Shown here: positions 5,703 to 40,841 of the stretch, piece after piece
Layout: each line of letters begins with the position of its first letter
How positions within the stretch are numbered: the first letter of the stretch is position 1
Source of the DNA: a virus
Lineage: Duplodnaviria; Heunggongvirae; Uroviricota; Caudoviricetes
Length of the DNA: 45,378 nt
Virus record (IMG/VR): IMGVR_UViG_2563366799_000010
Coordinates: 1-45,378 of that record
Reading direction: 5' to 3' (one strand)
Position numbers and translations under genes: made by a program
Notes under the pieces: model-generated
Seen by the model: the letters and a program-made list of their open reading frames with translations, nothing else
What the model was told of the DNA's origin: nothing
Databases searched by the model: none

Positions 5703-6055
5703 TACGCCTCCGATGTAACAGTCGTTATTCCATAGAGAGTGTCGATTTCAGCGGAAAACATGACACGTCGGGTCGTGGTATCCACCGTCGTATTGAAAGA
5801 GAGGATTGATTTAACGCCCCGCGTTTCCAGAATGCGTTTTCTGATCGCCAGGTTGTAAGTTTCCGGTTTTTGCCTGCCCAGTACGGACTGAATCCACGGT
5901 GTCCCCTCGGTGGTGTCGAGGAACCATTGCCCGTACCATAATTCGAATCGCGTTTTCACGGCCTGCGCCACGGCCTCTGGTGAGTTAATCAGCCAGGTAT
6001 CATCGCCGCTGCCAAAGGTGTAATCACCGTCGGCGTCTTCACGTCTGTATCGCAT
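5702..6055 (-). CDS. Small baseplate protein (gp25/XkdS-like)
   Basis: 117-aa ORF translationally coupled between spike and baseplate J genes. Confidence 0.45.
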   Translation of the reverse strand: MRYRREDADGDYTFGSGDDTWLINSPEAVAQAVKTRFELWYGQWFLDTTEGTPWIQSVLGRQKPETYNLAIRKRILETRGVKSILSFNTTVDTTTRRVMFSAEIDTLYGITTVTSEA

Positions 6056-6810
6056 CAGTTAGGCGCTCCTGTGTTACCGCCGCCGGTCTGTACTCCGCCG
6101 TGCGTGTGCGTCATCAGGCTCTTACCACCAGCTTTTACATCGTTAGTCACCGTGACAGGGCCAAGCATCGTCGCGGTGCCGCCGCTTTCGCCCATCCCCT
6201 GAGAGAGATTCCCGTTTATCGTCACGTTGCCGTTTAGCGTGATGGTGGGTGATGTGATCGTGGTTCCTCCTTCTGCTGTCGCCGTCAGCGCGCCGGGGGT
6301 TTTAACCGTGATGTTATGGCCTGCGGCCACTTCCACAAACGCAGCGCCATCATCAGTACGCAGTTGCGCGGCGCTGGTGCTGATTCCGCTGATTTTCTGC
6401 GCCTGAGACTGCGGACCGACGATACAGAACGCATCCGATAAGTCATGCACCCGGTCGTCGACAGGCTCCTGCACTCCGCCGTTCTGCCACCAGAAATCGA
6501 TGCAGCGATCGGCGAAAATCACCAGGCATTCATCACCGGCTTTAACCGGGAACGTTAGCGTGCATCCCCCGCCGCGCGGAAATACCACCGGTACATCCAC
6601 CAGCAGCGGGTAATTTTTGGTAACGCGGTTCCCGTCGTTATCCGTTTCAACCGAACGGATAGCAGGCTGCACAACCGCCGTAACCGCGTCAGGGTCGAAT
6701 GACTGGACGATGCCAGGCAAAGCGACGCGGATCTGGTTCTTTGTGGTGTCCCTCTCAGATTTGAATGTTTCGGCAAGGTCGCCGCTGCGGGTCTGGTCAG
6801 ATACTGCCAT
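6055..6810 (-). CDS. Baseplate spike / gpV-like protein
   Basis: Gly/Thr-rich C-terminus typical of spike proteins; ORF track start at 6831 is a TTG, ATG at 6810 has a GGAG RBS. Confidence 0.55.
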   Translation of the reverse strand: MAVSDQTRSGDLAETFKSERDTTKNQIRVALPGIVQSFDPDAVTAVVQPAIRSVETDNDGNRVTKNYPLLVDVPVVFPRGGGCTLTFPVKAGDECLVIFADRCIDFWWQNGGVQEPVDDRVHDLSDAFCIVGPQSQAQKISGISTSAAQLRTDDGAAFVEVAAGHNITVKTPGALTATAEGGTTITSPTITLNGNVTINGNLSQGMGESGGTATMLGPVTVTNDVKAGGKSLMTHTHGGVQTGGGNTGAPN

Positions 6811-6828
6811 TTGGTAGGCTCCAGAAAG

Positions 6829-6856
6829 CAAAAAACCCGCCGGGTGGCGGGTTTAT
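6829..6856 (-). terminator. Rho-independent terminator closing the inserted two-gene moron
   Basis: Minus-strand hairpin AAACCCGCC-ACCC-GGCGGGUUU followed by a U-tract; right arm overlaps the stop codon of the 138-aa gene. Confidence 0.55.
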
Positions 6857-7269
6857 GAATCGTAGGTTTTCAATTTTTCGAGTTCATCAGGAGGAAGTTC
6901 TATGAAGGTTTCCTCAGCTAATTTTATCAGCCTGGGAAGCATCGAATCAGCTTGCTGATGAGCGTTTGGGCTGATGATTGCCAATATCTGATAGTGTTCA
7001 TCGACATAAAGATGCTGAGCATATACCAAAAAATTATCACATGTCCGTTCACTCAGAGATGCTTCTGGAGGCCAGGGTTTATCGCCAGGTAGCTTTAAGT
7101 GAATTTTCCTGATGTTGGCAGCCATCGCATCATAGTTACGTTCAAAACCGCCTAACGAACCAAAACACCAGAACTGGGAACCCTTAGAAATATAATCGGC
7201 AAGCATTTGAGCATACTTATGTGCTGCAGCTAAATGACGCAATTCTCCCGTGATACTGACTTTTGCCAT
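6853..7269 (-). CDS. Hypothetical protein (moron gene 2 of 2) inserted in the baseplate module
   Basis: 138-aa ORF, 1-nt gap from upstream gene, own terminator, visibly more AT-rich than flanking tail genes; no recognisable motif. Confidence 0.55.
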   Translation of the reverse strand: MAKVSITGELRHLAAAHKYAQMLADYISKGSQFWCFGSLGGFERNYDAMAANIRKIHLKLPGDKPWPPEASLSERTCDNFLVYAQHLYVDEHYQILAIISPNAHQQADSMLPRLIKLAEETFIELPPDELEKLKTYDS

Positions 7270-7270
7270 G

Positions 7271-7843
7271 TCACATCCATTTAGGGGCGTCGGCTCCCAG
7301 CATCTTATGCGATGTTGAGATCAGTTCAATCGCCTCTTCACGGGTAACATTCTCTGACAAGAGTTCAGCCTGGAAAGGCTGAGATTGCCTAACTTCAGCG
7401 GCCAACTGAGTTGCAGTGTTCTCGACGGCGGTCAATGCACGAACATATTTGCGTTTTAATGGGCGCAACATTTGCAGATGGCCTTGCCACATAGGGGACC
7501 TTTCCGCTTCAGAGAACATATCCACTAAATGACCTTTAGCATTTCGGCATGCCTTAGCAAGACCTTCGAGGTGGGATAAAAACCCTTCCGGAAGCTCATC
7601 AACAATGATTCTTCCATTTCGAAAAGCTTCGAGATGAGACATGCCTTCCTTCGCGGTATTTTCGATTTCTTGAGCGCGTGCAGCAATCGCGGTACAACGA
7701 CGAAATGCCTCTTCAGCATCTAATCGTTGTGGCAGTTCACAAGCATTAGAGATCAGGGGTTTGAAAGCACCGTTAACAGCTTCCTGAACCTGATTCATTT
7801 GTTGTGTAATTGTTGCCAGCGCAAATGCGTAGCTAATCGCCAT
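7271..7843 (-). CDS. Hypothetical alpha-helical protein (moron gene 1 of 2)
   Basis: ORF track start (7849) is a TTG; ATG at 7843 has a GAGGGA RBS; preceded by a 160-bp AT-rich non-coding region. Confidence 0.55.
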   Translation of the reverse strand: MAISYAFALATITQQMNQVQEAVNGAFKPLISNACELPQRLDAEEAFRRCTAIAARAQEIENTAKEGMSHLEAFRNGRIIVDELPEGFLSHLEGLAKACRNAKGHLVDMFSEAERSPMWQGHLQMLRPLKRKYVRALTAVENTATQLAAEVRQSQPFQAELLSENVTREEAIELISTSHKMLGADAPKWM

Positions 7844-33519: not shown

Positions 33520-34365
33520 TCACTCCTGCGCCCATGAAGGCATTTCAGTTTGCCCGTAATCTTTGGCGGCAAAGTTTTCCTGCATAGCTCGCTGCTGCGG
33601 CCTCGGTTGAGATTTCCCCTTTGGAGTCTTGGGTTCAAAAATCCCCTGCCAACCACTGGCGATGCTCTGGTTTATAATTTCTTCAGGTGTATATCCCTTC
33701 TCCAGACTTCTGCTTAGAACGTTGATAGCCTGAGTGACGCTTTGCTTAGACTTGATCGACTTACCTATCTCCTTGCGATAGGTAACCCACGACAACCATG
33801 TTTCTGCCGATAACCAATCAGGCAACTCTGTTTCTAGCGGGTCGAACTTCTGAGAAATTTTTTTGGGGGATATAGGGGGTTTATTAATATTTTCTTTTGT
33901 CTTTAAAGAATGTCTTTTGTGTGTCTCTAACTTCGAGACATTGAGTGTCTCTAATTTGGAGACATTTTTTGTCTCTAACTTCGAGACAAAGTTGCTAACT
34001 TGGAGACACTTGCTGAATTGCCACGCAGATACCTCCCTGTTTACACCGATTTGATTTCCATCCATAAACAGGCAATTCATTGAAATCAGTTCTTTTTTAG
34101 CCTTGTTAACATTCTGCCTTGATAGTCCTGTTAACTGAGCAATTTGCTCATCGGCTATTCGATCTGTTTTCTTATTGAATCCATATGTTTTCCGGACGTA
34201 GGCCAGCATAACTTTCAACTGGCGAGCGGTTAAATCGGCACTTGCGATAGCTTCCAGCAGCTCGTTAGCGAATCTGGTGTAACCATCATCGATATCAGCC
34301 ACTCTTAGCTCCTGTTCGGCAAAGTTACCTCTGCCGAAGTTGAGTATTTTTGCTGTATTTGTCAT
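33520..34365 (-). CDS. Replication initiator (lambda O-like)
   Basis: 281-aa ORF; internal repeats VSKLET x3 are encoded by origin iterons lying inside the gene. Confidence 0.7.
   Translation of the reverse strand: MTNTAKILNFGRGNFAEQELRVADIDDGYTRFANELLEAIASADLTARQLKVMLAYVRKTYGFNKKTDRIADEQIAQLTGLSRQNVNKAKKELISMNCLFMDGNQIGVNREVSAWQFSKCLQVSNFVSKLETKNVSKLETLNVSKLETHKRHSLKTKENINKPPISPKKISQKFDPLETELPDWLSAETWLSWVTYRKEIGKSIKSKQSVTQAINVLSRSLEKGYTPEEIINQSIASGWQGIFEPKTPKGKSQPRPQQRAMQENFAAKDYGQTEMPSWAQE
33922..34008. repeat. Replication origin: four 19-bp iterons (TGTCTCTAACTTCGAGACA-like) at 24-bp spacing, flanked by an AT-rich tract (33850-33920)
   Basis: Read directly: copies at 33922, 33946, 33970 and a degenerate one near 33990, each an inverted repeat TGTCTC...GAGACA. 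Confidence 0.65.
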
Positions 34366-34397
34366 AATGACTCCTGTGGATTGATCCAGTAATTACC

Positions 34398-34694
34398 TCA
34401 GAATTGCATATCAATTTGCTTAAAATCCTCGGTGGCGGCCGGGGATTTTTTCTTTGTGATTTCATCAAGCGCATACTTAAAAGCCCTGCTAATCGGACTG
34501 ATGTCTGATGCCATTCCGAAAGCACACAAGACCGAAGCAATAAATCTCCAGTCCGTTCTGCTTATCTTCGATTCATGACAGCCAATCATCTTTGCCAGAC
34601 CGCGCTGGGTAAGCGTTGACAGGTTGATGAGTAAATCTGTTTCTGCGCGATCAATTTCTCGCTGTGTTGGCTTGCTGTAACTTGCTTGTGTCAT
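34398..34694 (-). CDS. CII-like transcriptional activator
   Basis: 98 aa; C-terminal KKKSPAATEDFKQIDMQF resembles the lambda CII C-terminus as recalled; position downstream of cro. Confidence 0.55.
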   Translation of the reverse strand: MTQASYSKPTQREIDRAETDLLINLSTLTQRGLAKMIGCHESKISRTDWRFIASVLCAFGMASDISPISRAFKYALDEITKKKSPAATEDFKQIDMQF

Positions 34695-34778
34695 TTGTTA
34701 ATTTTCCAATAGTGAATAGTTAGTTGAAAGGTATGCGTGGAAACACATATGGCCTTAGTTGGTCAGATATCTTGGGGC

Positions 34779-34823
34779 TCGCTTTGTCAGCGACGTAGGA
34801 CGAATGTCCATTGTGAAAAGAGC
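34779..34823 (-). promoter_or_regulatory. nutR-like site (boxA-like CGCTCTTTTCA and boxB hairpin UCGCUGACAAAGCGA)
   Basis: Read on the minus strand between cro and cII; boxB has a GACAA pentaloop like the P22-type boxB upstream of N. Confidence 0.4.
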
Positions 34824-34831
34824 GGTGTTAC

Positions 34832-35065
34832 TTATGCTGCTGATGCTCTACGCGATACGAACACCAGGTTTTCCTTTTTCACGGGTTTATAGGCCGTGAA
34901 ATTACGAGTAGCTTCTTCGATTGCATTCGCTTTATCAGGGGAAGCTCTTCGAAATCCATATGCAATCTGGTCAAGATAGCCAACTGAAGTTTTCGCTAAT
35001 GCGGCGAGTCGCTTCCATTCCTCACTAGAAGCCTCTTTTCGCCAGCGTAGTAGTTCATTACTCAT
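34832..35065 (-). CDS. Cro-like repressor
   Basis: 77-aa ORF divergent from cI with a GGAGG RBS. Confidence 0.55.
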   Translation of the reverse strand: MSNELLRWRKEASSEEWKRLAALAKTSVGYLDQIAYGFRRASPDKANAIEEATRNFTAYKPVKKENLVFVSRRASAA

Positions 35066-35178
35066 TAGTGCCTCCGTTTATCATACAGAATAACTTTACC
35101 ATTTTGATAAATCAACCGCAATGTAAATTTATCATATTGCGTATTTATCCATTTGCTAAATAGAGGGAAAATTGTGAG
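35066..35178. promoter_or_regulatory. Right operator region with divergent promoters for cI and cro
   Basis: Four TTTATCA-type operator-like motifs including the palindrome TTGATAAATCAA; candidate -10 TAAAGT on the minus strand. Confidence 0.5.
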
Positions 35179-35883
35179 ATGGAAAACAAAGATATTCGCA
35201 AATCGAATCTGGCGTTTTTGCTAGATGAGCATAAAAAAATCGCGGGTAACACTAATGCAAGCTTTGCCGATAAGCTTGGGGTTAGCCCTTCTCAACTCAC
35301 GCAAGTCTCCGGTGAAAAAAGCACTCGAAACATAGGGGATAAACTAGCAAGAAAATTTGAAGCCGCACTTGGGTTACCTAATGGGTGGCTTGATTTGGTA
35401 CATGATGTAACACCAATTGCATCATGCTCAGATTCTTTAACTTTTGTCGGTCAGGTAAGAAAAGGGTTAGTGCGCGTGGTTGGTGAGGCAATTCTTGGTG
35501 TTGATGGTGCCATCGAGATGACCGAAGAGCGCGATGGGTGGCTCAAAATTTATAGCGATGATCCAGATGCCTTTGGCCTTCGTGTGAAAGGAGACAGCAT
35601 GTGGCCTAGAATAAAATCAGGAGAATATGTACTCATTGAGCCTAACACCAAAGTATTCCCGGGTGATGAGGTGTTTGTCAGAACCGTTGAAGGACACAAC
35701 ATGATTAAGGTTCTTGGCTATGACAGAGATGGAGAATACCAATTTACAAGCATCAACCAAGACCACAGGCCAATAACGTTGCCTTATCATCAAGTAGCAA
35801 AGGTGGAGTATGTGGCTGGTATTCTGAAGCAATCTCGCCATCTGGATGACATCGAGGCAAGGGAGTGGCTGAAAAGTTCGTGA
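35179..35883 (+). CDS. CI-type repressor (HTH plus S24 LexA-like autopeptidase)
   Basis: N-terminal HTH region; C-terminal S24 motif GDSMWPRIKSGEYVLIEPN with the catalytic Ser/Lys pattern. Confidence 0.85.
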   Translation: MENKDIRKSNLAFLLDEHKKIAGNTNASFADKLGVSPSQLTQVSGEKSTRNIGDKLARKFEAALGLPNGWLDLVHDVTPIASCSDSLTFVGQVRKGLVRVVGEAILGVDGAIEMTEERDGWLKIYSDDPDAFGLRVKGDSMWPRIKSGEYVLIEPNTKVFPGDEVFVRTVEGHNMIKVLGYDRDGEYQFTSINQDHRPITLPYHQVAKVEYVAGILKQSRHLDDIEAREWLKSS

Positions 35884-36083
35884 CTTCATCGTCCCATAGC
35901 TGATAGCCAGTGGCCTGAAGAGACGTTTGGGTGATGGGCAAGGTGTTCTGGTCGGCGCATAGCTGGTGAAAAAATTATTTAATGCGGTGTATTGGCTGAT
36001 TGTAACCCCATGTAACATCTTGCCGTCACCATTTCGGTGGTTAGATTTTTAATAAAAAAAACAAATGTATAGCAAGGTTTTTT

Positions 36084-36563
36084 ATGGATAAAATTAATTA
36101 CCCACCCCTGTTTGAGCCAGGGTTCCATGACATGGATGAAGCTGGATTAAAATCGTATTGTGTCGATTGCTTTCCTTCATCATCCAGGCGAGGCATGCTA
36201 TACTGTAATTTTATACAGCTACTCGAATCTATTCGAGAATTATCTGCTCAATATGGCTGTTTTACAGAAATATGGGTTGATGGTTCATACACCACGTCTA
36301 AACCAGAGCCTGATGATATTGATATTTTGTTGGTATGTGACTATAGCAATATAAACTCAATACCTGTCATGCTTCGGGGCCGCGTCGATAATTTGCTTGA
36401 CCGAAACTACATCAAACAAAACTACAAAATTGATGTCCTACTACTCATGAAGAATTTAGATGACCCTAACTATGATTATGAGTACTGGCGTAGCTACTGG
36501 CGCGGTTGGTTTGGTTTTGATCGCAGTGAAAACCCGAAAGGGTTAGTGAGGATTTTTTTATGA
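36084..36563 (+). CDS. Small nucleotidyltransferase-fold protein (minimal NTase-like), gene 1 of a cargo operon
   Basis: Motif ...WVDGSYTTSKPEPDDIDILLV (GS at residues 67-68, DxD at 78-80) fits the Pol-beta NTase signature; AAGG RBS; AT-rich. Confidence 0.55.
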   Translation: MDKINYPPLFEPGFHDMDEAGLKSYCVDCFPSSSRRGMLYCNFIQLLESIRELSAQYGCFTEIWVDGSYTTSKPEPDDIDILLVCDYSNINSIPVMLRGRVDNLLDRNYIKQNYKIDVLLLMKNLDDPNYDYEYWRSYWRGWFGFDRSENPKGLVRIFL

Positions 36564-37492
36564 ATGATAAATCAATGTTTAAAAATTGCGATAAACGCAT
36601 TGATTTCATTCAAAAAGAAGTCGATGCAATGAAGCAAAACAAAACCAGGTCCTTTGCTGACATGCTTCTTTATCGCTCCATGGATTCTCATCTGAGCGAT
36701 TTGAAGGCCGAAAAATTAAAGCAAGATAGTCGGCACCCACTTATCGATTTTTTTGAGCTGCGGCTGAAAGGCTCTGAGGTTGACTTTGGCTCTATTCCTT
36801 TAGAGCTGCTTGGGGCTATTTCAACAAATCTTGCAGCGCTAATACAAAGAGCAACACACAAAATTGCCTCAGGCAAGGACTCAAAAAAAGTTCCCTACGA
36901 CGTGAAAAGCTCCTTAAACCTCAGGCTGGCTGATTTATCCCCTGGGTCTACAAAATTGGGCGTCACCTTCTCTACAGGAATAGCAGAATTAGTAGAAACA
37001 GTACCCAGCAAGGCTGTAAAAGGCATATTCGATTTGTTGTTAAGCGATGACGACAACAACTTCATGAATCACGTCGCTGAAATTGGATACAATTCCACTG
37101 TAAGCCTTAAGAGAATCGTAGAGGAATGCGATAAACACAACTTAACATTTGATGCAAGTTGGACCGGTCCATTTAGTAATGGCACCAAGGTGGCAACTAT
37201 TGACTCCAATAAAATTAAGTACTTGGTGAGTAGACTTACATCAACCATTTCATCCCCTCCCATTACTGAAACGGTTACAGGCGAACTGGTCGTTCTATCC
37301 AAATATGGGAAGCTGGAGCTTGATGTTGGTGGTGAACATTTAAAGGCTTCCTATCCGATTGAAATGCTAGATTTAATACAAAAAAAACACAAGGTCGGAC
37401 AGATTGTTTCTCTTTTAGTGGAGACTACTGAGATTCACAATGATCGCATAGGTCTGTACCGTAAAAACCATCTTGTTAAATCGGTTCTTTAA
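36560..37492 (+). CDS. Hypothetical 310-aa protein, gene 2 of the cargo operon
   Basis: ATGA start/stop overlap with gene 1 implies translational coupling; soluble, mixed alpha/beta character, no recognisable motif. Confidence 0.55.
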   Translation: MNDKSMFKNCDKRIDFIQKEVDAMKQNKTRSFADMLLYRSMDSHLSDLKAEKLKQDSRHPLIDFFELRLKGSEVDFGSIPLELLGAISTNLAALIQRATHKIASGKDSKKVPYDVKSSLNLRLADLSPGSTKLGVTFSTGIAELVETVPSKAVKGIFDLLLSDDDNNFMNHVAEIGYNSTVSLKRIVEECDKHNLTFDASWTGPFSNGTKVATIDSNKIKYLVSRLTSTISSPPITETVTGELVVLSKYGKLELDVGGEHLKASYPIEMLDLIQKKHKVGQIVSLLVETTEIHNDRIGLYRKNHLVKSVL

Positions 37493-37499
37493 TATCTCA

Positions 37500-37526
37500 C
37501 CCGGCCTCAGCGCCGGGTTTTCTTTG
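37500..37526 (+). terminator. Rho-independent terminator ending the cI-cargo operon
   Basis: CCCGGC-CTCAGC-GCCGGG hairpin followed by TTTTCTTTG, 8 nt after the stop codon. Confidence 0.65.
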
Positions 37527-37704
37527 CCTCTCGATCCCCCACCTAAAAAAACATAACTCATTGTATTTATTGAAGAACTGATTGATACAACTTGCTAAAC
37601 CACGCAATCCAGATCTCCCTCAAATCTCTTTATTTATCCTGTCGAATTCCTACAACAAAATAAAACACCATAAGAATCAATACGATATTTGAAAATCAAA
37701 AGAA

Positions 37705-37760
37705 TTTATCATTTTGCTATTGCCATTAATTTATCATTCCGATAAAGTTTACCCATCAGC
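37705..37760 (+). promoter_or_regulatory. Left operator / pL candidate
   Basis: TTGCCA-17 nt-TAAAGT (37720..37748) overlapping TTTATCA-type operator motifs like those at the right operator. Confidence 0.4.
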
Positions 37761-37816
37761 AGGACGCACTACTCACCAGGGCGGTGAATATACAACGATT
37801 CGAATATGAATCTACG

Positions 37817-37831
37817 GCGCTGACAAAGCGC
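37817..37831 (+). promoter_or_regulatory. nutL boxB hairpin (GCGCUGACAAAGCGC)
   Basis: Perfect 5-bp stem with GACAA pentaloop, matching the P22-type boxB as recalled; upstream of the N-like gene. Confidence 0.5.
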
Positions 37832-38092
37832 AATAACCAAAGTGAACTTTGGGGTGTGGTGAAGCCAGCTAGTCACTGGCAAGTGCTTACCTACTGTTGA
37901 GCGGTGAAGCGCTCCCAACGCTAGCAATAGCGTGGACGAGATGGGGAGCCGCGGGCGATAAGGCCGCCATAACGCGCACGTTGTCGCATGGAAAAATCAC
38001 TGGGGTGCCGGTTATACCCCTCCGAATGAGACTCAACAAGCTGGAGCTAGACTACCAGCCACCACACCACCAAAGTTCATCAGGAGGTCTAT

Positions 38093-38476
38093 ATGACACG
38101 CAGAACTCAGTTCAAAGGCAATTCACGTTCTCGTCGTCGTGAGCGTTTAAAGGCAAAGGCATTAGCTAACGGCGTACTGGCCCGCGAAGAAGCAATAAGT
38201 TCAGAAGTATTACACCGCCCTACTCTAAGCAGAGCGCAGATTCAGGCTAAAGGTACTCACGAAACGCCTGAGCGCATAGAAGACGCTAAGCCAATTAAGT
38301 TCATGGCACAGGACGTGATCTGGCAACATAAAGAATACAGACGCAATCTGGAGAGAGCGGCCATTGTGTACGCGAATGATTTTGGACATAAGCAACCAGA
38401 AACTGGTGTATGTCTTCCAAACGTAGCCATTTACGCGGCAGGATACCGGAAATCAAAACAACTGACAGCGAGGTAA
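38093..38476 (+). CDS. N-like transcription antiterminator (P22 gp24-like)
   Basis: N-terminal Arg-rich motif TRRTQFKGNSRSRRRERLK; C-terminus LPNVAIYAAGYRKSKQLTAR resembles P22 gp24 as recalled. Confidence 0.65.
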   Translation: MTRRTQFKGNSRSRRRERLKAKALANGVLAREEAISSEVLHRPTLSRAQIQAKGTHETPERIEDAKPIKFMAQDVIWQHKEYRRNLERAAIVYANDFGHKQPETGVCLPNVAIYAAGYRKSKQLTAR

Positions 38477-38479
38477 GTG

Positions 38480-38704
38480 ATGAATCAGACATACATTCCA
38501 TCATGCTTGAGAAATCTGCCAAAGCAGAAAGCAAAGCCCCGCAAGCAAGCCATAAAGGACGCTAAGGCAGAGGTTATTGATCAAGCAATACAATTGCTCA
38601 GGAAGGAGTTAAGAAGTGGCAAGCTCGAAGGAATGATGATGCCCTATCAGCGCGGATATCTATCGGCGATTAGTAAGTTGGAAGTATTGAAGAGTGAATT
38701 ATGA
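38480..38704 (+). CDS. Small hypothetical early protein (ral-position)
   Basis: 74-aa ORF starting right after the N-like gene stop. Confidence 0.35.
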   Translation: MNQTYIPSCLRNLPKQKAKPRKQAIKDAKAEVIDQAIQLLRKELRSGKLEGMMMPYQRGYLSAISKLEVLKSEL

Positions 38705-38766
38705 ACTATCTGGAATTTCCGGATGGTTCATTGTTTTGGCAGCAAACCACTTATTTGAGGTGAGAT

Positions 38767-39216
38767 ATGGAAGAACAAGCAAACAAGATTCTCGTAGAGC
38801 TACTGCAAAAAGCCAGTAATGGAATAGACGCGGCTGTTTCATTCAGCCAGGCACAGATTCCTGATGTTGTTCATCAGTTGCTGCTATGGAATATGGTTGA
38901 CAGTCTGATTAAAACATTAATGGCCATTCTAACAATCCCACTGGTTTTCTGGTTTATGAAGAAGCAGTGCCAAAGAGTTGAGACAGGTAAAATCGGTGAT
39001 GAAGGATATTCATGGGAGAAAGGAAATCCCAAATACATGCCGACAATGGTTTGGGATAGCAAAGGTGATATTAATCTTCTTATCATGCCATTGGTTGTAG
39101 TTTTGACTCTGTGGGGGATTTTTATTATTGGTGTAGTAACCAATATGACTTGGTTAAAAATTTGGCTGGCCCCAAAGCTTTACCTTATCGAATATGCAGC
39201 ATCATTGGTTAAGTAA
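38767..39216 (+). CDS. Membrane protein with two predicted transmembrane helices (sieB-position)
   Basis: Hydrophobic segments at about residues 50-70 and 105-130. Confidence 0.45.
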   Translation: MEEQANKILVELLQKASNGIDAAVSFSQAQIPDVVHQLLLWNMVDSLIKTLMAILTIPLVFWFMKKQCQRVETGKIGDEGYSWEKGNPKYMPTMVWDSKGDINLLIMPLVVVLTLWGIFIIGVVTNMTWLKIWLAPKLYLIEYAASLVK

Positions 39217-39738: not shown

Positions 39739-39869
39739 GCACTGTGTATTCATTCCAACGAGTGAATACACGGAGCAATGTCGCTCGTAACTAAACAGGA
39801 GCCGACTTGTTCTGATTATTGGAAATCTTCTTTGCCCTCCAATGTGAGGGCGATTTTTTTGATGGAGGA

Positions 39870-40841
39870 TATATGAGTGAAGTAACAGATTTAGTTGTTA
39901 TTGAAAAAGCAAATGCAATGATTGTATTTCAGTCTGCTGACCAGATTGAAGAAATTCTCCAAAAGGTTGAACGTGAAGTTATGTCCTTTGTGCCTGATAT
40001 CACAACGGCAAAGGGCAGAAAGGAGATCGCTTCTCTGGCGTATAAAGTTGCGCAGACGAAAACATATCTCGATGGTCTTGGCAAAGACCTTGTTGCTGAA
40101 CTGAAGGAAATTCCAAAGCTAATTGATGCCAACCGCAAGACAGTGCGTGATCGCCTTGATGAGCTGAAAGCCAAGGCACGCCAGCCTCTTACTGATTATG
40201 AGGAAGAACAGGCGCGGATTAAAGCCGAAGAAGAAGCTAAGGCAGCAGCTGAAGCTCTCGCAAAGCAAATTGAGTCTGACCATGAAATAGCTATTTTGAT
40301 GGATCGCGAATTTGACCGCCAAAGAGAAGAGGCAAGACTCAAAGCGGAGCAGGAAAAGCGAGAGCATGAAGAACGCTTAAAAAGAGAAGCTGAAGAGAAA
40401 GCCAGAGCAGAAGCCGAAGCAAAGGCAAAAGCCGAAATTGAAGCAGCAGCAAGGCGAGAAGCAGAAGCTAAGGCCGCAGCGGAACGTGCAGAGCGTGAAC
40501 GCATTGAAGCCGAGCAACGAGCACAGCGCGAAGCAAAAGAGGCAGCAGAACGAGCTGAAAGAGAAAAGCAGGCAGCAATTGAAGCAGAACGCAGAAAAGC
40601 ACAGGAGGAGGCTGAACGAATCCGTCGCGAGGCTGAAGCAAAAGAGCAAGCCAGAATCGCAGAAGAAAAAAGAATCAAGGACGAAGAAGAGCACAGAGCA
40701 AAGGATAAAGCTCGCCGGAAAGAAGTAAATAACAAAATACTTGCTGACCTTATCAAGGTTGGCGCATCAGAAGATGTTGCTAAAAATATCATAACAGCCA
40801 TCGTAAAAGGCGAAGTATTCGCAACAAAAATAACCTACTAA
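39870..40841 (+). CDS. Coiled-coil protein with long E/A/K/R-rich repeat region
   Basis: Start at the internal ATG with a GGAGG RBS; residues about 120-290 are charged low-complexity repeats (AEAKAKAE...). Confidence 0.5.
   Translation, partial: YMSEVTDLVVIEKANAMIVFQSADQIEEILQKVEREVMSFVPDITTAKGRKEIASLAYKVAQTKTYLDGLGKDLVAELKEIPKLIDANRKTVRDRLDELKAKARQPLTDYEEEQARIKAEEEAKAAAEALAKQIESDHEIAILMDREFDRQREEARLKAEQEKREHEERLKREAEEKARAEAEAKAKAEIEAAARREAEAKAAAERAERERIEAEQRAQREAKEAAERAEREKQAAIEAERRKAQEEAERIRREAEAKEQARIAEEKRIKDEEEHRAKDKARRKEVNNKILADLIKVGASEDVAKNIITAIVKGEVFATKITY

Follow-up and report, generated by a model that had tools for sequence, protein, structure and literature searches.

The window (the whole 45,378-nucleotide stretch of viral DNA analysed here) carries, downstream of a cI-type repressor gene, two open reading frames that we refer to as genes A and B. 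They and the features around them are as follows:

Left of cI-A-B, minus strand: cII, O and a DnaC-like gene
35095-35160: OR, operator-like repeats of the AATTTATCAT type
35179-35883, plus strand: cI-type repressor (Peptidase_S24, 3.8e-16; weak HTH_3 match), context outside the mobile cassette
35908-36083, plus strand: upstream non-coding part of the cassette, 99.5% shared with phage mEpX1
36084-36563, plus strand: gene A, open reading frame of 159 aa
36560-37492, plus strand: gene B, open reading frame of 310 aa
37499-37526, plus strand: intrinsic terminator, a 7-pair stem (6 GC pairs) at 37499-37518 followed by a T-run, TTTCTTTGCC
37703-37738, plus strand: OL, operator-like repeats with AATTTATCATT twice, at the right edge of the slot
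37720-37748, plus strand: pL-like promoter, at the right edge of the slot
38093-38476: N antiterminator (PF25694, 2.5e-15)

A preliminary description of this DNA had reported two same-strand genes after cI, coupled through an ATGA and ended by a terminator, and this layout is borne out. The stop codon of A overlaps the start codon of B by 4 nt (ATGA at 36560-36563), and the terminator marks the end of the cI-A-B transcription unit. About 7 nt ahead of the ATG of A stands a short Shine-Dalgarno-like sequence, AAGG; further upstream, within the gap between cI and A, is a weak hairpin (36022-36041) that was listed as terminator-like. A promoter scan of this gap returned nothing above threshold, and no convincing promoter belonging to the cassette was seen. 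Most likely, A and B are transcribed together with cI in the lysogen and are translationally coupled.

In lambda, cI-rexA-rexB is bracketed by OR and OL; in the window, OR and OL bracket cI-A-B, and the placement of the pair in the equivalent of the rexAB slot is correct. The adjoining region, described earlier as pL/nutL/N-like, does contain a pL-like promoter and N, but a pattern search for a boxA-like nutL element gave nothing above chance. A search of positions 34000-39000 against Rfam gave no credible RNA family. Windowed GC content agrees with the claim that the block is AT-rich relative to its neighbors: GC is 39.6% in A, 40.5% in B and 40.8% across the cassette, compared to 44.7% in cI, 47.7% in N and 50.0% in the window. 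The cassette lies at the 1st percentile among windows of the same size; its AT-richness is genuine yet moderate.

Gene A matches Pfam DUF6932 (PF22014) with 87.3 bits against a cutoff of 27, over model positions 7-141/142, and corresponds to phrog_9194. The Pol-beta signature first read in A as GS-x9-DxD is present as G67-S68-x9-D78-I-D80, in agreement with the motif hG[GS]-x9-13-Dh[DE]h, and is strongly conserved: among 67 distinct homologs G67, S68 and D78 are found in 100%, D80 in 66 and D117, the third catalytic carboxylate, in 63. Structure prediction, run as a check on the nucleotidyltransferase fold, supports it: the model has a confident nucleotidyltransferase alpha/beta core, with D117 at the start of strand 116-123, and its best structural neighbors are all Pol-beta nucleotidyltransferases. 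MNT antitoxins and minimal nucleotidyltransferases are among the nearest structures, and ANT-type antibiotic nucleotidyltransferases also occur among the neighbors. Near the C-terminus is a family-specific motif, R136-SYWRGWFGF-145, and a set of aromatic and basic residues is invariant (W139, Y138, R140 and F143, plus R36, W64 and K73). Tyr138 was considered as a counterpart of the C-terminal priming tyrosine of HalB and rejected, being located in a helix and not in a C-terminal tail. Judged by motif and modelled fold, A is a divergent minimal Pol-beta-type nucleotidyltransferase, and it looks like an active enzyme.

Gene B is less easily characterized. The soluble protein it encodes lacks Pfam domains, membrane segments and any catalytic signature, and conserved catalytic residues were not found. 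In the structure model, residues from about 1 to 57 form a helical hairpin at the N-terminus. This is followed by a middle domain (roughly 58-150), which shares homology with the N-terminal part of another PADLOC candidate, PDC-M32A, by a helical region at 148-192 and by a beta region, the last portion of which (roughly 235-309) is a C-terminal OB fold. When the middle domain served as profile query for other architectures, a single fragment came back. This domain carries the invariant pair G129-S130, with Ser130 in a low-confidence loop of the model; the conserved positions of B are otherwise mainly Gly, Ser, Pro and aromatics, together with D/E63, R68 and R122. The OB fold resembles those that bind ssDNA and tRNA anticodons; however, the domain is electrically neutral on average, which means that nucleic-acid binding is not assured. 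The types of residue conserved, the OB fold and the fact that B diverges faster than A (see below) suggest a regulated binder rather than an enzyme.

B had been cast as an effector, a role for which no recognisable toxic or effector domain was found: nuclease, membrane, TIR and HEPN features are all absent, and what can be recognised instead is the OB fold. The idea of a membrane effector was rejected for want of a transmembrane segment. An RSMDSH motif at 39-44 was considered as a HEPN site and likewise rejected, as it is not conserved, with R39 and H44 varying even among close homologs; across 53 members HEPN Pfam models gave no consistent match, and no conserved Arg...His pair was seen.

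The module had been proposed as undescribed. Comparison to PADLOC overturned this: A matches PDC-M63A (PDLC04744, 1.8e-41, residues 1-158/159) and B matches PDC-M63B (PDLC04749, 7.5e-45, residues 23-304, with five more PDC-M63B models matching), in addition to the Pfam and PHROG assignments, which for B is phrog_6603. On these profile matches the window pair is a member of PADLOC PDC-M63 (PDC-M63A plus PDC-M63B), adjacent and co-oriented, from which it shows no family-level difference; the identity of the cassette and its status as accessory cargo we regard as close to certain. PDC-M63 is a guilt-by-embedding candidate (Payne et al., bioRxiv 10.1101/2024.01.29.577857); the genes from which the PDC candidates, PDC-M63 included, were drawn lay inside BREX, DISARM or type I restriction-modification (RM) systems. 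NCBIfam gave no match to either protein, and searches of PDB sequences with single sequences and profiles gave noise only (flavodoxin, an LPXTG protein, keratin, AAV capsid and SAVED at E = 1.2). In the literature searched there was no functional account of DUF6932/PF22014, the PHROG families, WP_016063143, mEp506 or PDC-M32/M02, and papers that mention mEpX1 leave the A and B genes undiscussed. A Tn-seq paper on Pectobacteriaceae, considered as evidence for the essentiality of a homolog, was rejected: it concerns AbiE, not PDC-M63.

To determine whether the two genes belong together we looked at their arrangement in other genomes. In all 25 genome and metagenome loci and all 80 viral loci, about 105 in total, the two are direct neighbors with a shared orientation and A first; the genome-locus search with one family alignment gave 5 loci. 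In 10 of 11 lineages the stop of A overlaps the start of B, with an overlap of either 4 or 14 nt. The two proteins co-diverge (r = 0.86), with B the faster: in distant pairs B shares 22-27% identity compared to 34-43% for A. Judged by arrangement and co-divergence, A and B are an obligate pair.

The surroundings of the pair are far less constant. A same-strand S24 repressor lies no more than 1.5 kb upstream of A in at least 53 of the 80 viral loci, among them relatives that share 30-40% identity, and the near-identical cassette is found downstream of 10 different repressor clusters. In mEpX1 the cI gene differs from that of the window, and the megablast match begins at window position 35908. 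Left junctions in other carriers fall 22 to 177 nt upstream of A, and the approximately 22 nt immediately upstream are the only stretch that every carrier of the near-identical cassette shares. Right mosaic junctions fall in or just past the terminator; most of the 16 carriers compared have theirs 14-43 nt beyond the stop codon of B, and in one of the 16 similarity extends 70 nt past it. The cI of the window is itself found in mEp506, BP-4795 and AU5Stx1, each with different cargo: the slot between cI and N holds an operon annotated HicA/HicB/HicC (TAC-like) in the sibling phage mEp506, three other open reading frames in BP-4795, and is almost empty in AU5Stx1. A and B, then, are variable cargo and not a core phage function: they constitute a promoterless, horizontally mobile two-gene cassette that a lambdoid prophage carries between its cI gene and OL/pL. 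Strict adjacency, the upstream S24 gene, the 10 repressor types and the exchange of slot contents in mEp506 together point to mobile cargo that is probably expressed in the lysogen and probably anti-phage.

The likeness to lambda RexA/RexB is positional only. The two modules share the position between cI and OL/pL, the orientation of cI and a terminator before OL, but no sequence or domain relation, and PADLOC gave no Rex match. RexB is a membrane protein, whereas B is without membrane segments. In 933W the slot downstream of cI is reportedly occupied by Stk. Published work treats this slot as a defence locus of variable content, whose occupants include BstA and HigBAC.

Copies outside prophages gave partial support to the expectation that homologs sit in defence islands. 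A-B adjoins a type I RM system and a YoeB/YefM toxin-antitoxin (TA) pair at locus L009, an Hhe/PDC-S37 helicase at L027 and a NACHT protein at L024; loci L007 and L022 have no clear defence neighbors, although the open reading frame upstream of A in L022 gives a weak match to a TIR effector (E 2e-6). Set against this is the deletion of PDC-M63AB from its native prophage in E. coli NILS69, which left the plating of 10 virulent dsDNA phages unchanged (PMC12409345); this is the only published PDC-M63 experiment, and the NILS69 copy possibly belongs to another subfamily than that of the window. An anti-phage function for A-B has, in our judgement, slightly better than even odds. With the family already catalogued and the sole experiment negative, the value of the present analysis lies in guiding a better-designed test and not in discovery.

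Membership of MNT/HEPN, AbiE or CBASS systems, to which the pair had been likened, fails in each case on a defining feature. The MNT-HEPN pair MntA-HepT (type VII TA) also has a small minimal nucleotidyltransferase first and an overlapping downstream partner; that partner, however, is an RNase of the HEPN type bearing an Rx4-6H motif, which B lacks, its recognisable fold being an OB fold. AbiE (AbiEi/AbiEii, type IV TA) is likewise a two-gene nucleotidyltransferase module on mobile elements tied to phage resistance. AbiEii is a DUF1814-type nucleotidyltransferase of approximately 290 aa, encoded second, after the wHTH antitoxin AbiEi; for A-B there is no AbiE/DUF1814 match in Pfam or PADLOC, and with A first the gene order is reversed. 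CBASS combines an SMODS-type CD-NTase of approximately 300 aa with a signal-sensing effector (SAVED, STING or similar), a combination that A-B does not show; at 159 aa, A has roughly half the length of the CD-NTases of solved structure that it matches (290-370 residues). In common with CBASS, Hailong (HalB plus HalA), Clover (CloB plus CloA) and Panoptes, the pair joins a Pol-beta-superfamily nucleotidyltransferase to a partner that is regulated or looks non-enzymatic, and by analogy a nucleotidyltransferase product that restrains its partner would fit the OB fold of B and its conserved Arg and Ser pocket residues. HalA, however, is a membrane ion channel, and B, having no transmembrane segment, does not qualify the pair as Hailong; CloA is an HD dNTPase, whereas B has no Pfam match; and the structures of HalB and CloB are absent from the top structural matches of A.

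The reading we prefer is that the lysogen expresses A-B as an anti-phage or abortive-infection module, with B under the control of the small enzyme A; to this explanation, taken as a whole, we assign a probability of roughly 0.5. A would either nucleotidylylate B, with the G129-S130 loop a candidate site of modification, or make a nucleotide or oligonucleotide to which B binds. B would serve as sensor or executor by way of its coiled-coil N-terminus, its novel middle domain and the OB fold at its C-terminus; it might, for example, bind nucleic acid when infection upsets the balance between A and B. On the other side, in E. coli KL53 ISVsa5 interrupts A while B is intact and the strain is viable, which speaks weakly against the idea that B is a toxin made constitutively and kept in check by A. 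That a nucleotidyltransferase controls its partner in this specific manner is a tentative proposition, and on balance a doubtful one.

Three further explanations account for some of the same observations. The pair may be a type VII TA module in the style of MNT/HEPN that serves mainly to stabilise the prophage: A, the antitoxin, would AMPylate the toxin B, and loss of the prophage or of A would set B free. The nucleotidyltransferase-first order and translational coupling are as in mntA-hepT, the MNT antitoxins lie close to A in structure, the invariant Ser130 sits in its low-confidence loop, and in mEp506 the slot is filled by an operon whose annotation resembles a TA-chaperone system. We consider this explanation unlikely. 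The roles may also be reversed, such that A is a toxic effector like AbiEii or MenT, adding nucleotides to the 3' ends of tRNA or other nucleic acid or modifying a phage or host protein, and B, as an OB-fold sensor or antitoxin, sets A free or switches it on when infection occurs. The invariant aromatic and basic residues of A could hold a nucleic-acid end or a nucleotide, the OB fold of B has its parallels among ssDNA- and anticodon-binding folds, and the faster evolution of B is that expected of a sensor in an arms race. Yet the AbiEii and MenT toxins are much larger and unrelated in sequence, neither PADLOC nor Pfam gave an AbiE match, an antitoxin-first rule would place B first and, to our knowledge, the small MNT-like nucleotidyltransferases characterised to date are antitoxins; we consider a toxic A improbable.

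It is also conceivable that the cassette is lysogen cargo unconnected with defence: a modulator of the lysis-lysogeny decision or of host physiology, or an enzyme that nucleotidylylates a small molecule (an antibiotic, for instance) with B as helper. Modulation of the switch or of host physiology has been proposed as part of the function of RexA/RexB. In its favor, the NILS69 deletion gave no defence phenotype, ANT-type enzymes are structural neighbors of A, the association with repressor genes stays close even among deeply diverged relatives, and some homologs reside in plain chromosomal contexts. Strict pairing with a 310-aa OB-fold protein is, however, unlike ANT enzymes, and free exchange of the cassette among unrelated repressors means that it is not tuned to one switch. 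Moreover, non-prophage copies adjoin RM, TA and helicase defence genes, and the PDC candidates come from defence-embedded genes. We give cargo of this kind little credence.

A more novel reading treats PDC-M63 as an inhibitory-signal guard, similar in concept to Hailong, Clover and Panoptes but built from unrelated parts; drawn by analogy, it is a long shot. A would hold B inactive, either by the constant synthesis of a nucleotide or short oligonucleotide or by the constant nucleotidylylation of Ser130 in B. A superinfecting phage, probably a temperate or lambdoid one outside the NILS69 test, would deplete or reverse the mark; B, once freed, would attach to intermediates of replication or recombination and abort the infection. 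Recurrent siting on the repressor transcript would then make the pair a lysogen-specific immune module. Several points of the present analysis were not found in the literature searched: the strict A-B pairing and co-divergence, the recurrent siting downstream of S24 repressors, the promoterless cassette boundaries and the domain map of B, including its link to PDC-M32A. Should PDC-M63 work in defence, it would represent a mechanistically new pairing in nucleotidyltransferase-based immunity, a 150-aa enzyme with an OB-fold partner lacking any known effector domain, specialised to ride prophage repressor transcripts across very distant phage lineages.

The region between the repressor and N carries what the preliminary description had proposed, namely two genes on one strand immediately after cI, coupled by an ATGA (36560-36563) in which the stop codon of A overlaps the start codon of B, and closed by a terminator. 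The features of the locus are as follows.

Left of cI, − strand: cro-like ORF, cII (PF05269), O and a DnaC-like loader
35095-35160: OR, operator-like AATTTATCAT repeats
35179..35883, upstream of A and B: cI-type repressor (Peptidase_S24, 3.8e-16; HTH_3, weak)
36084..36563, + strand: A, ORF of 159 aa
36560..37492, + strand: B, ORF of 310 aa
37499-37518: intrinsic terminator, a 7-pair stem with 6 GC pairs, then TTTCTTTGCC
37703-37738: OL, operator-like AATTTATCAT repeats
37720-37748: pL-like promoter
38093..38476, downstream of A and B: N antiterminator (PF25694, 2.5e-15)

The resulting order, cro / OR / cI / A / B / terminator / OL-pL / N, parallels that of the lambda immunity region (cro / OR / cI / rexA / rexB / OL-pL / N). 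Of the pL/nutL/N-like region originally described, the promoter and N were recovered, but a pattern search confirmed no nutL/boxA element. The suspected AT-richness is borne out: GC-content is 40.8% in the cassette, against 44.7% in cI, 47.7% in N and 50.0% in the window, which places the cassette in the lowest 1% of windows of the same size.

Three further features lie to the right. Between pL and the start codon of N, the leader is spanned by a long-range inverted repeat (37843-37861 versus 38060-38079, some 200 nt apart; complementarity 86% over 14 nt and 100% over 10 nt), which could be an N-leader RNA structure. Downstream of N, a 149-aa ORF (38767-39216) with hydrophobic, membrane-like segments and no Pfam match occupies a position similar to that frequently taken by superinfection-exclusion genes in lambdoid phages. 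Within the pL operon, a 340-aa ORF (39819-40841), also with no Pfam match, is extremely rich in E, A, K and R; its long charged stretch is probably a coiled-coil.

Protein A matches Pfam DUF6932 (87 bits; cutoff 27), PADLOC PDC-M63A (1.8e-41) and phrog_9194. The Pol-beta nucleotidyltransferase (NTase) signature first noticed in the sequence stands: an AlphaFold model built from 42 homologs is very confident (pLDDT 96.1) and shows an NTase fold in which the catalytic triad is conserved. Among 67 distinct homologs, drawn from 105 loci, G67, S68 and D78 are invariant, as are R36, W64, K73 and W139; D80 is kept in 66 and D117 in 63. This pattern points to A being, by prediction, an active enzyme. 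A further motif, R136-SYWRGWFGF-145, is specific to the family.

Protein B matches PADLOC PDC-M63B (7.5e-45) and five further models, together with phrog_6603; it has no family match in Pfam or NCBIfam, and 53 divergent members show no consistent Pfam match. An exhaustive HMMER search (E <= 1e-3) recovered 265 homolog clusters, defined at 50% identity, nearly all of 300-325 aa and of a single architecture. The model (pLDDT 82.8) begins with a helical hairpin, continues through a mixed domain with a low-confidence loop (residues ~125-150) and a helical region, and ends in a beta-rich domain of classic beta1-3/alpha/beta4-5 OB topology, uncharged on average. No transmembrane segment was found in B, which is a soluble OB-fold protein without a catalytic signature. 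Across distant members G129-S130 is 100% conserved, and D/E63, R68, R122, several Gly and Pro, and aromatics at 157, 201, 212 and 265 are also conserved; these positions form no obvious catalytic set. Residues 58-150 (window 36731-37009) share homology with the N-terminal ~90 residues of the PADLOC candidate PDC-M32A (376 aa), which is matched by 18 of the 38 family members with a best E of 1.2e-8; a weaker relationship extends to PDC-M02B. This is a domain common to otherwise different candidate systems.

The two genes are an obligate unit. As immediate neighbors on the same strand, A first, they occur in all 25 genome and metagenome loci and in all 80 viral contigs, the latter retrieved via either A or B. 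In 10 of 11 lineages the end of A overlaps the beginning of B, by 4 or 14 nt, and pairwise identities of A and B are correlated (r = 0.86), as befits a co-evolving pair; B diverges faster (22-27% identity in distant pairs, compared with 34-43% for A).

The cassette is mobile cargo of the repressor-downstream slot, rather than a core phage function. Phage mEpX1 carries an identical cassette (99.5% DNA identity, from window 35908 to ~37528) behind a different cI. Conversely, three phages that share the window's cI and N differ in the slot: in mEp506 (PV340542.1 5697-6827, equivalent to window 35908-37528) it holds an operon annotated as HicA/HicB/HicC toxin-antitoxin-chaperone-like, in BP-4795 three unrelated hypothetical ORFs, and in AU5Stx1 it is nearly empty. 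Of 5426 complete E. coli genomes, 18 carry the cassette; across 50,697 phage records it was seen in just three distinct phages, namely mEpX1, Erwinia phage vB_EhrS_59 and PhiR30_1. Upstream repressors of 17 carriers (>=98% identity) fall into 10 clusters sharing <90% identity with one another. In at least 53 of the 80 viral loci, an S24 repressor is encoded on the same strand no more than 1.5 kb upstream; the loci with this arrangement take in relatives whose identity is only 30-40%, as well as an unrelated prophage type (L026).

Similarity among carriers begins 22 to 177 nt upstream of A and ends 14-43 nt past the B stop codon, in or just after the terminator, in 15 of 16 carriers; in the remaining one it continues for 70 nt. 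From these varying junctions the unit common to all carriers comprises RBS, A, B and terminator, with no promoter, which favours read-through from the repressor transcript as the mode of expression. The cassette sits on the repressor transcription unit and is most likely transcribed with cI.

The proposal of an undescribed module does not hold: PDC-M63A/B already cover both proteins, and A-B is most aptly placed in PDC-M63, a family that is catalogued but uncharacterised. PDC-M63 is one of 145 'phage defence candidates' proposed from genes located inside BREX, DISARM or type I RM systems, and entered PADLOC untested (Payne et al., 10.1101/2024.01.29.577857). The only experimental report we found is from E. 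coli NILS69, where deletion of PDC-M63AB from its own prophage left the infectivity of 10 virulent dsDNA phages unchanged, the authors acknowledging the narrowness of their panel (PMC12409345); a search of the literature found nothing more on DUF6932 or on either protein. Membership tests excluded the module from MNT/HEPN, AbiE, CBASS, Hailong and RexAB.

To read the pair as an accessory module with an NTase in the rex slot is reasonable, but a role in defence is unproven, and the one test of it was negative. Distant homologs outside prophages lie in the contexts listed here.

L009: YoeB/YefM on one side, a type I RM system on the other
L027: adjoining an Hhe/PDC-S37 helicase
L024: adjoining a NACHT protein
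L010: in a mobile element that also carries Lar, RadC and a DNA methyltransferase
L007, L022: unremarkable chromosomal contexts (upstream of A in L022, an ORF with only a weak PADLOC TIR-effector match, E 2e-6)

We put the probability of an anti-phage function at about 0.55. More tentatively, A would control B, either by nucleotidylylation, with the invariant G129-S130 loop as candidate site, or by synthesising a ligand, either a nucleotide or an oligonucleotide; B would act as sensor or executor, possibly through nucleic-acid binding, and a superinfecting phage would be excluded. It seems improbable that the pair is an MNT/HEPN-like toxin-antitoxin system serving prophage stability, and we similarly doubt a toxic NTase of AbiEii/MenT type with B as sensor or antitoxin. 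A lysogenic function other than defence is an equally long shot. If functional, the PDC-M63 family would add a new variant to the two-gene systems based on NTases.

In E. coli KL53 (NZ_CP030919.1 1787544-1790013) the IS4-like element ISVsa5 lies inside A, ~160 nt into the gene; a 111-aa remnant retains the catalytic motif, B is intact and the strain is viable, a weak argument against B being a constitutively active toxin. The viral homolog of A in L089 (3850-5243; pairing with B confirmed by eye) has lost the RSYWRGWFGF motif, reading DYWLELFGTL, and keeps GS...DxD with B downstream; its upstream neighbor is an HTH-only protein without an S24 domain. On two JGI metagenome contigs (L010 and L011, ~6001-7390) a distant A-B pair (34% and 27% identity) is found within a run of small same-strand genes, together with Lar (restriction alleviation), RadC and an N6/N4 DNA methyltransferase; the setting resembles a mobile element's early or leading region, not an immunity region.
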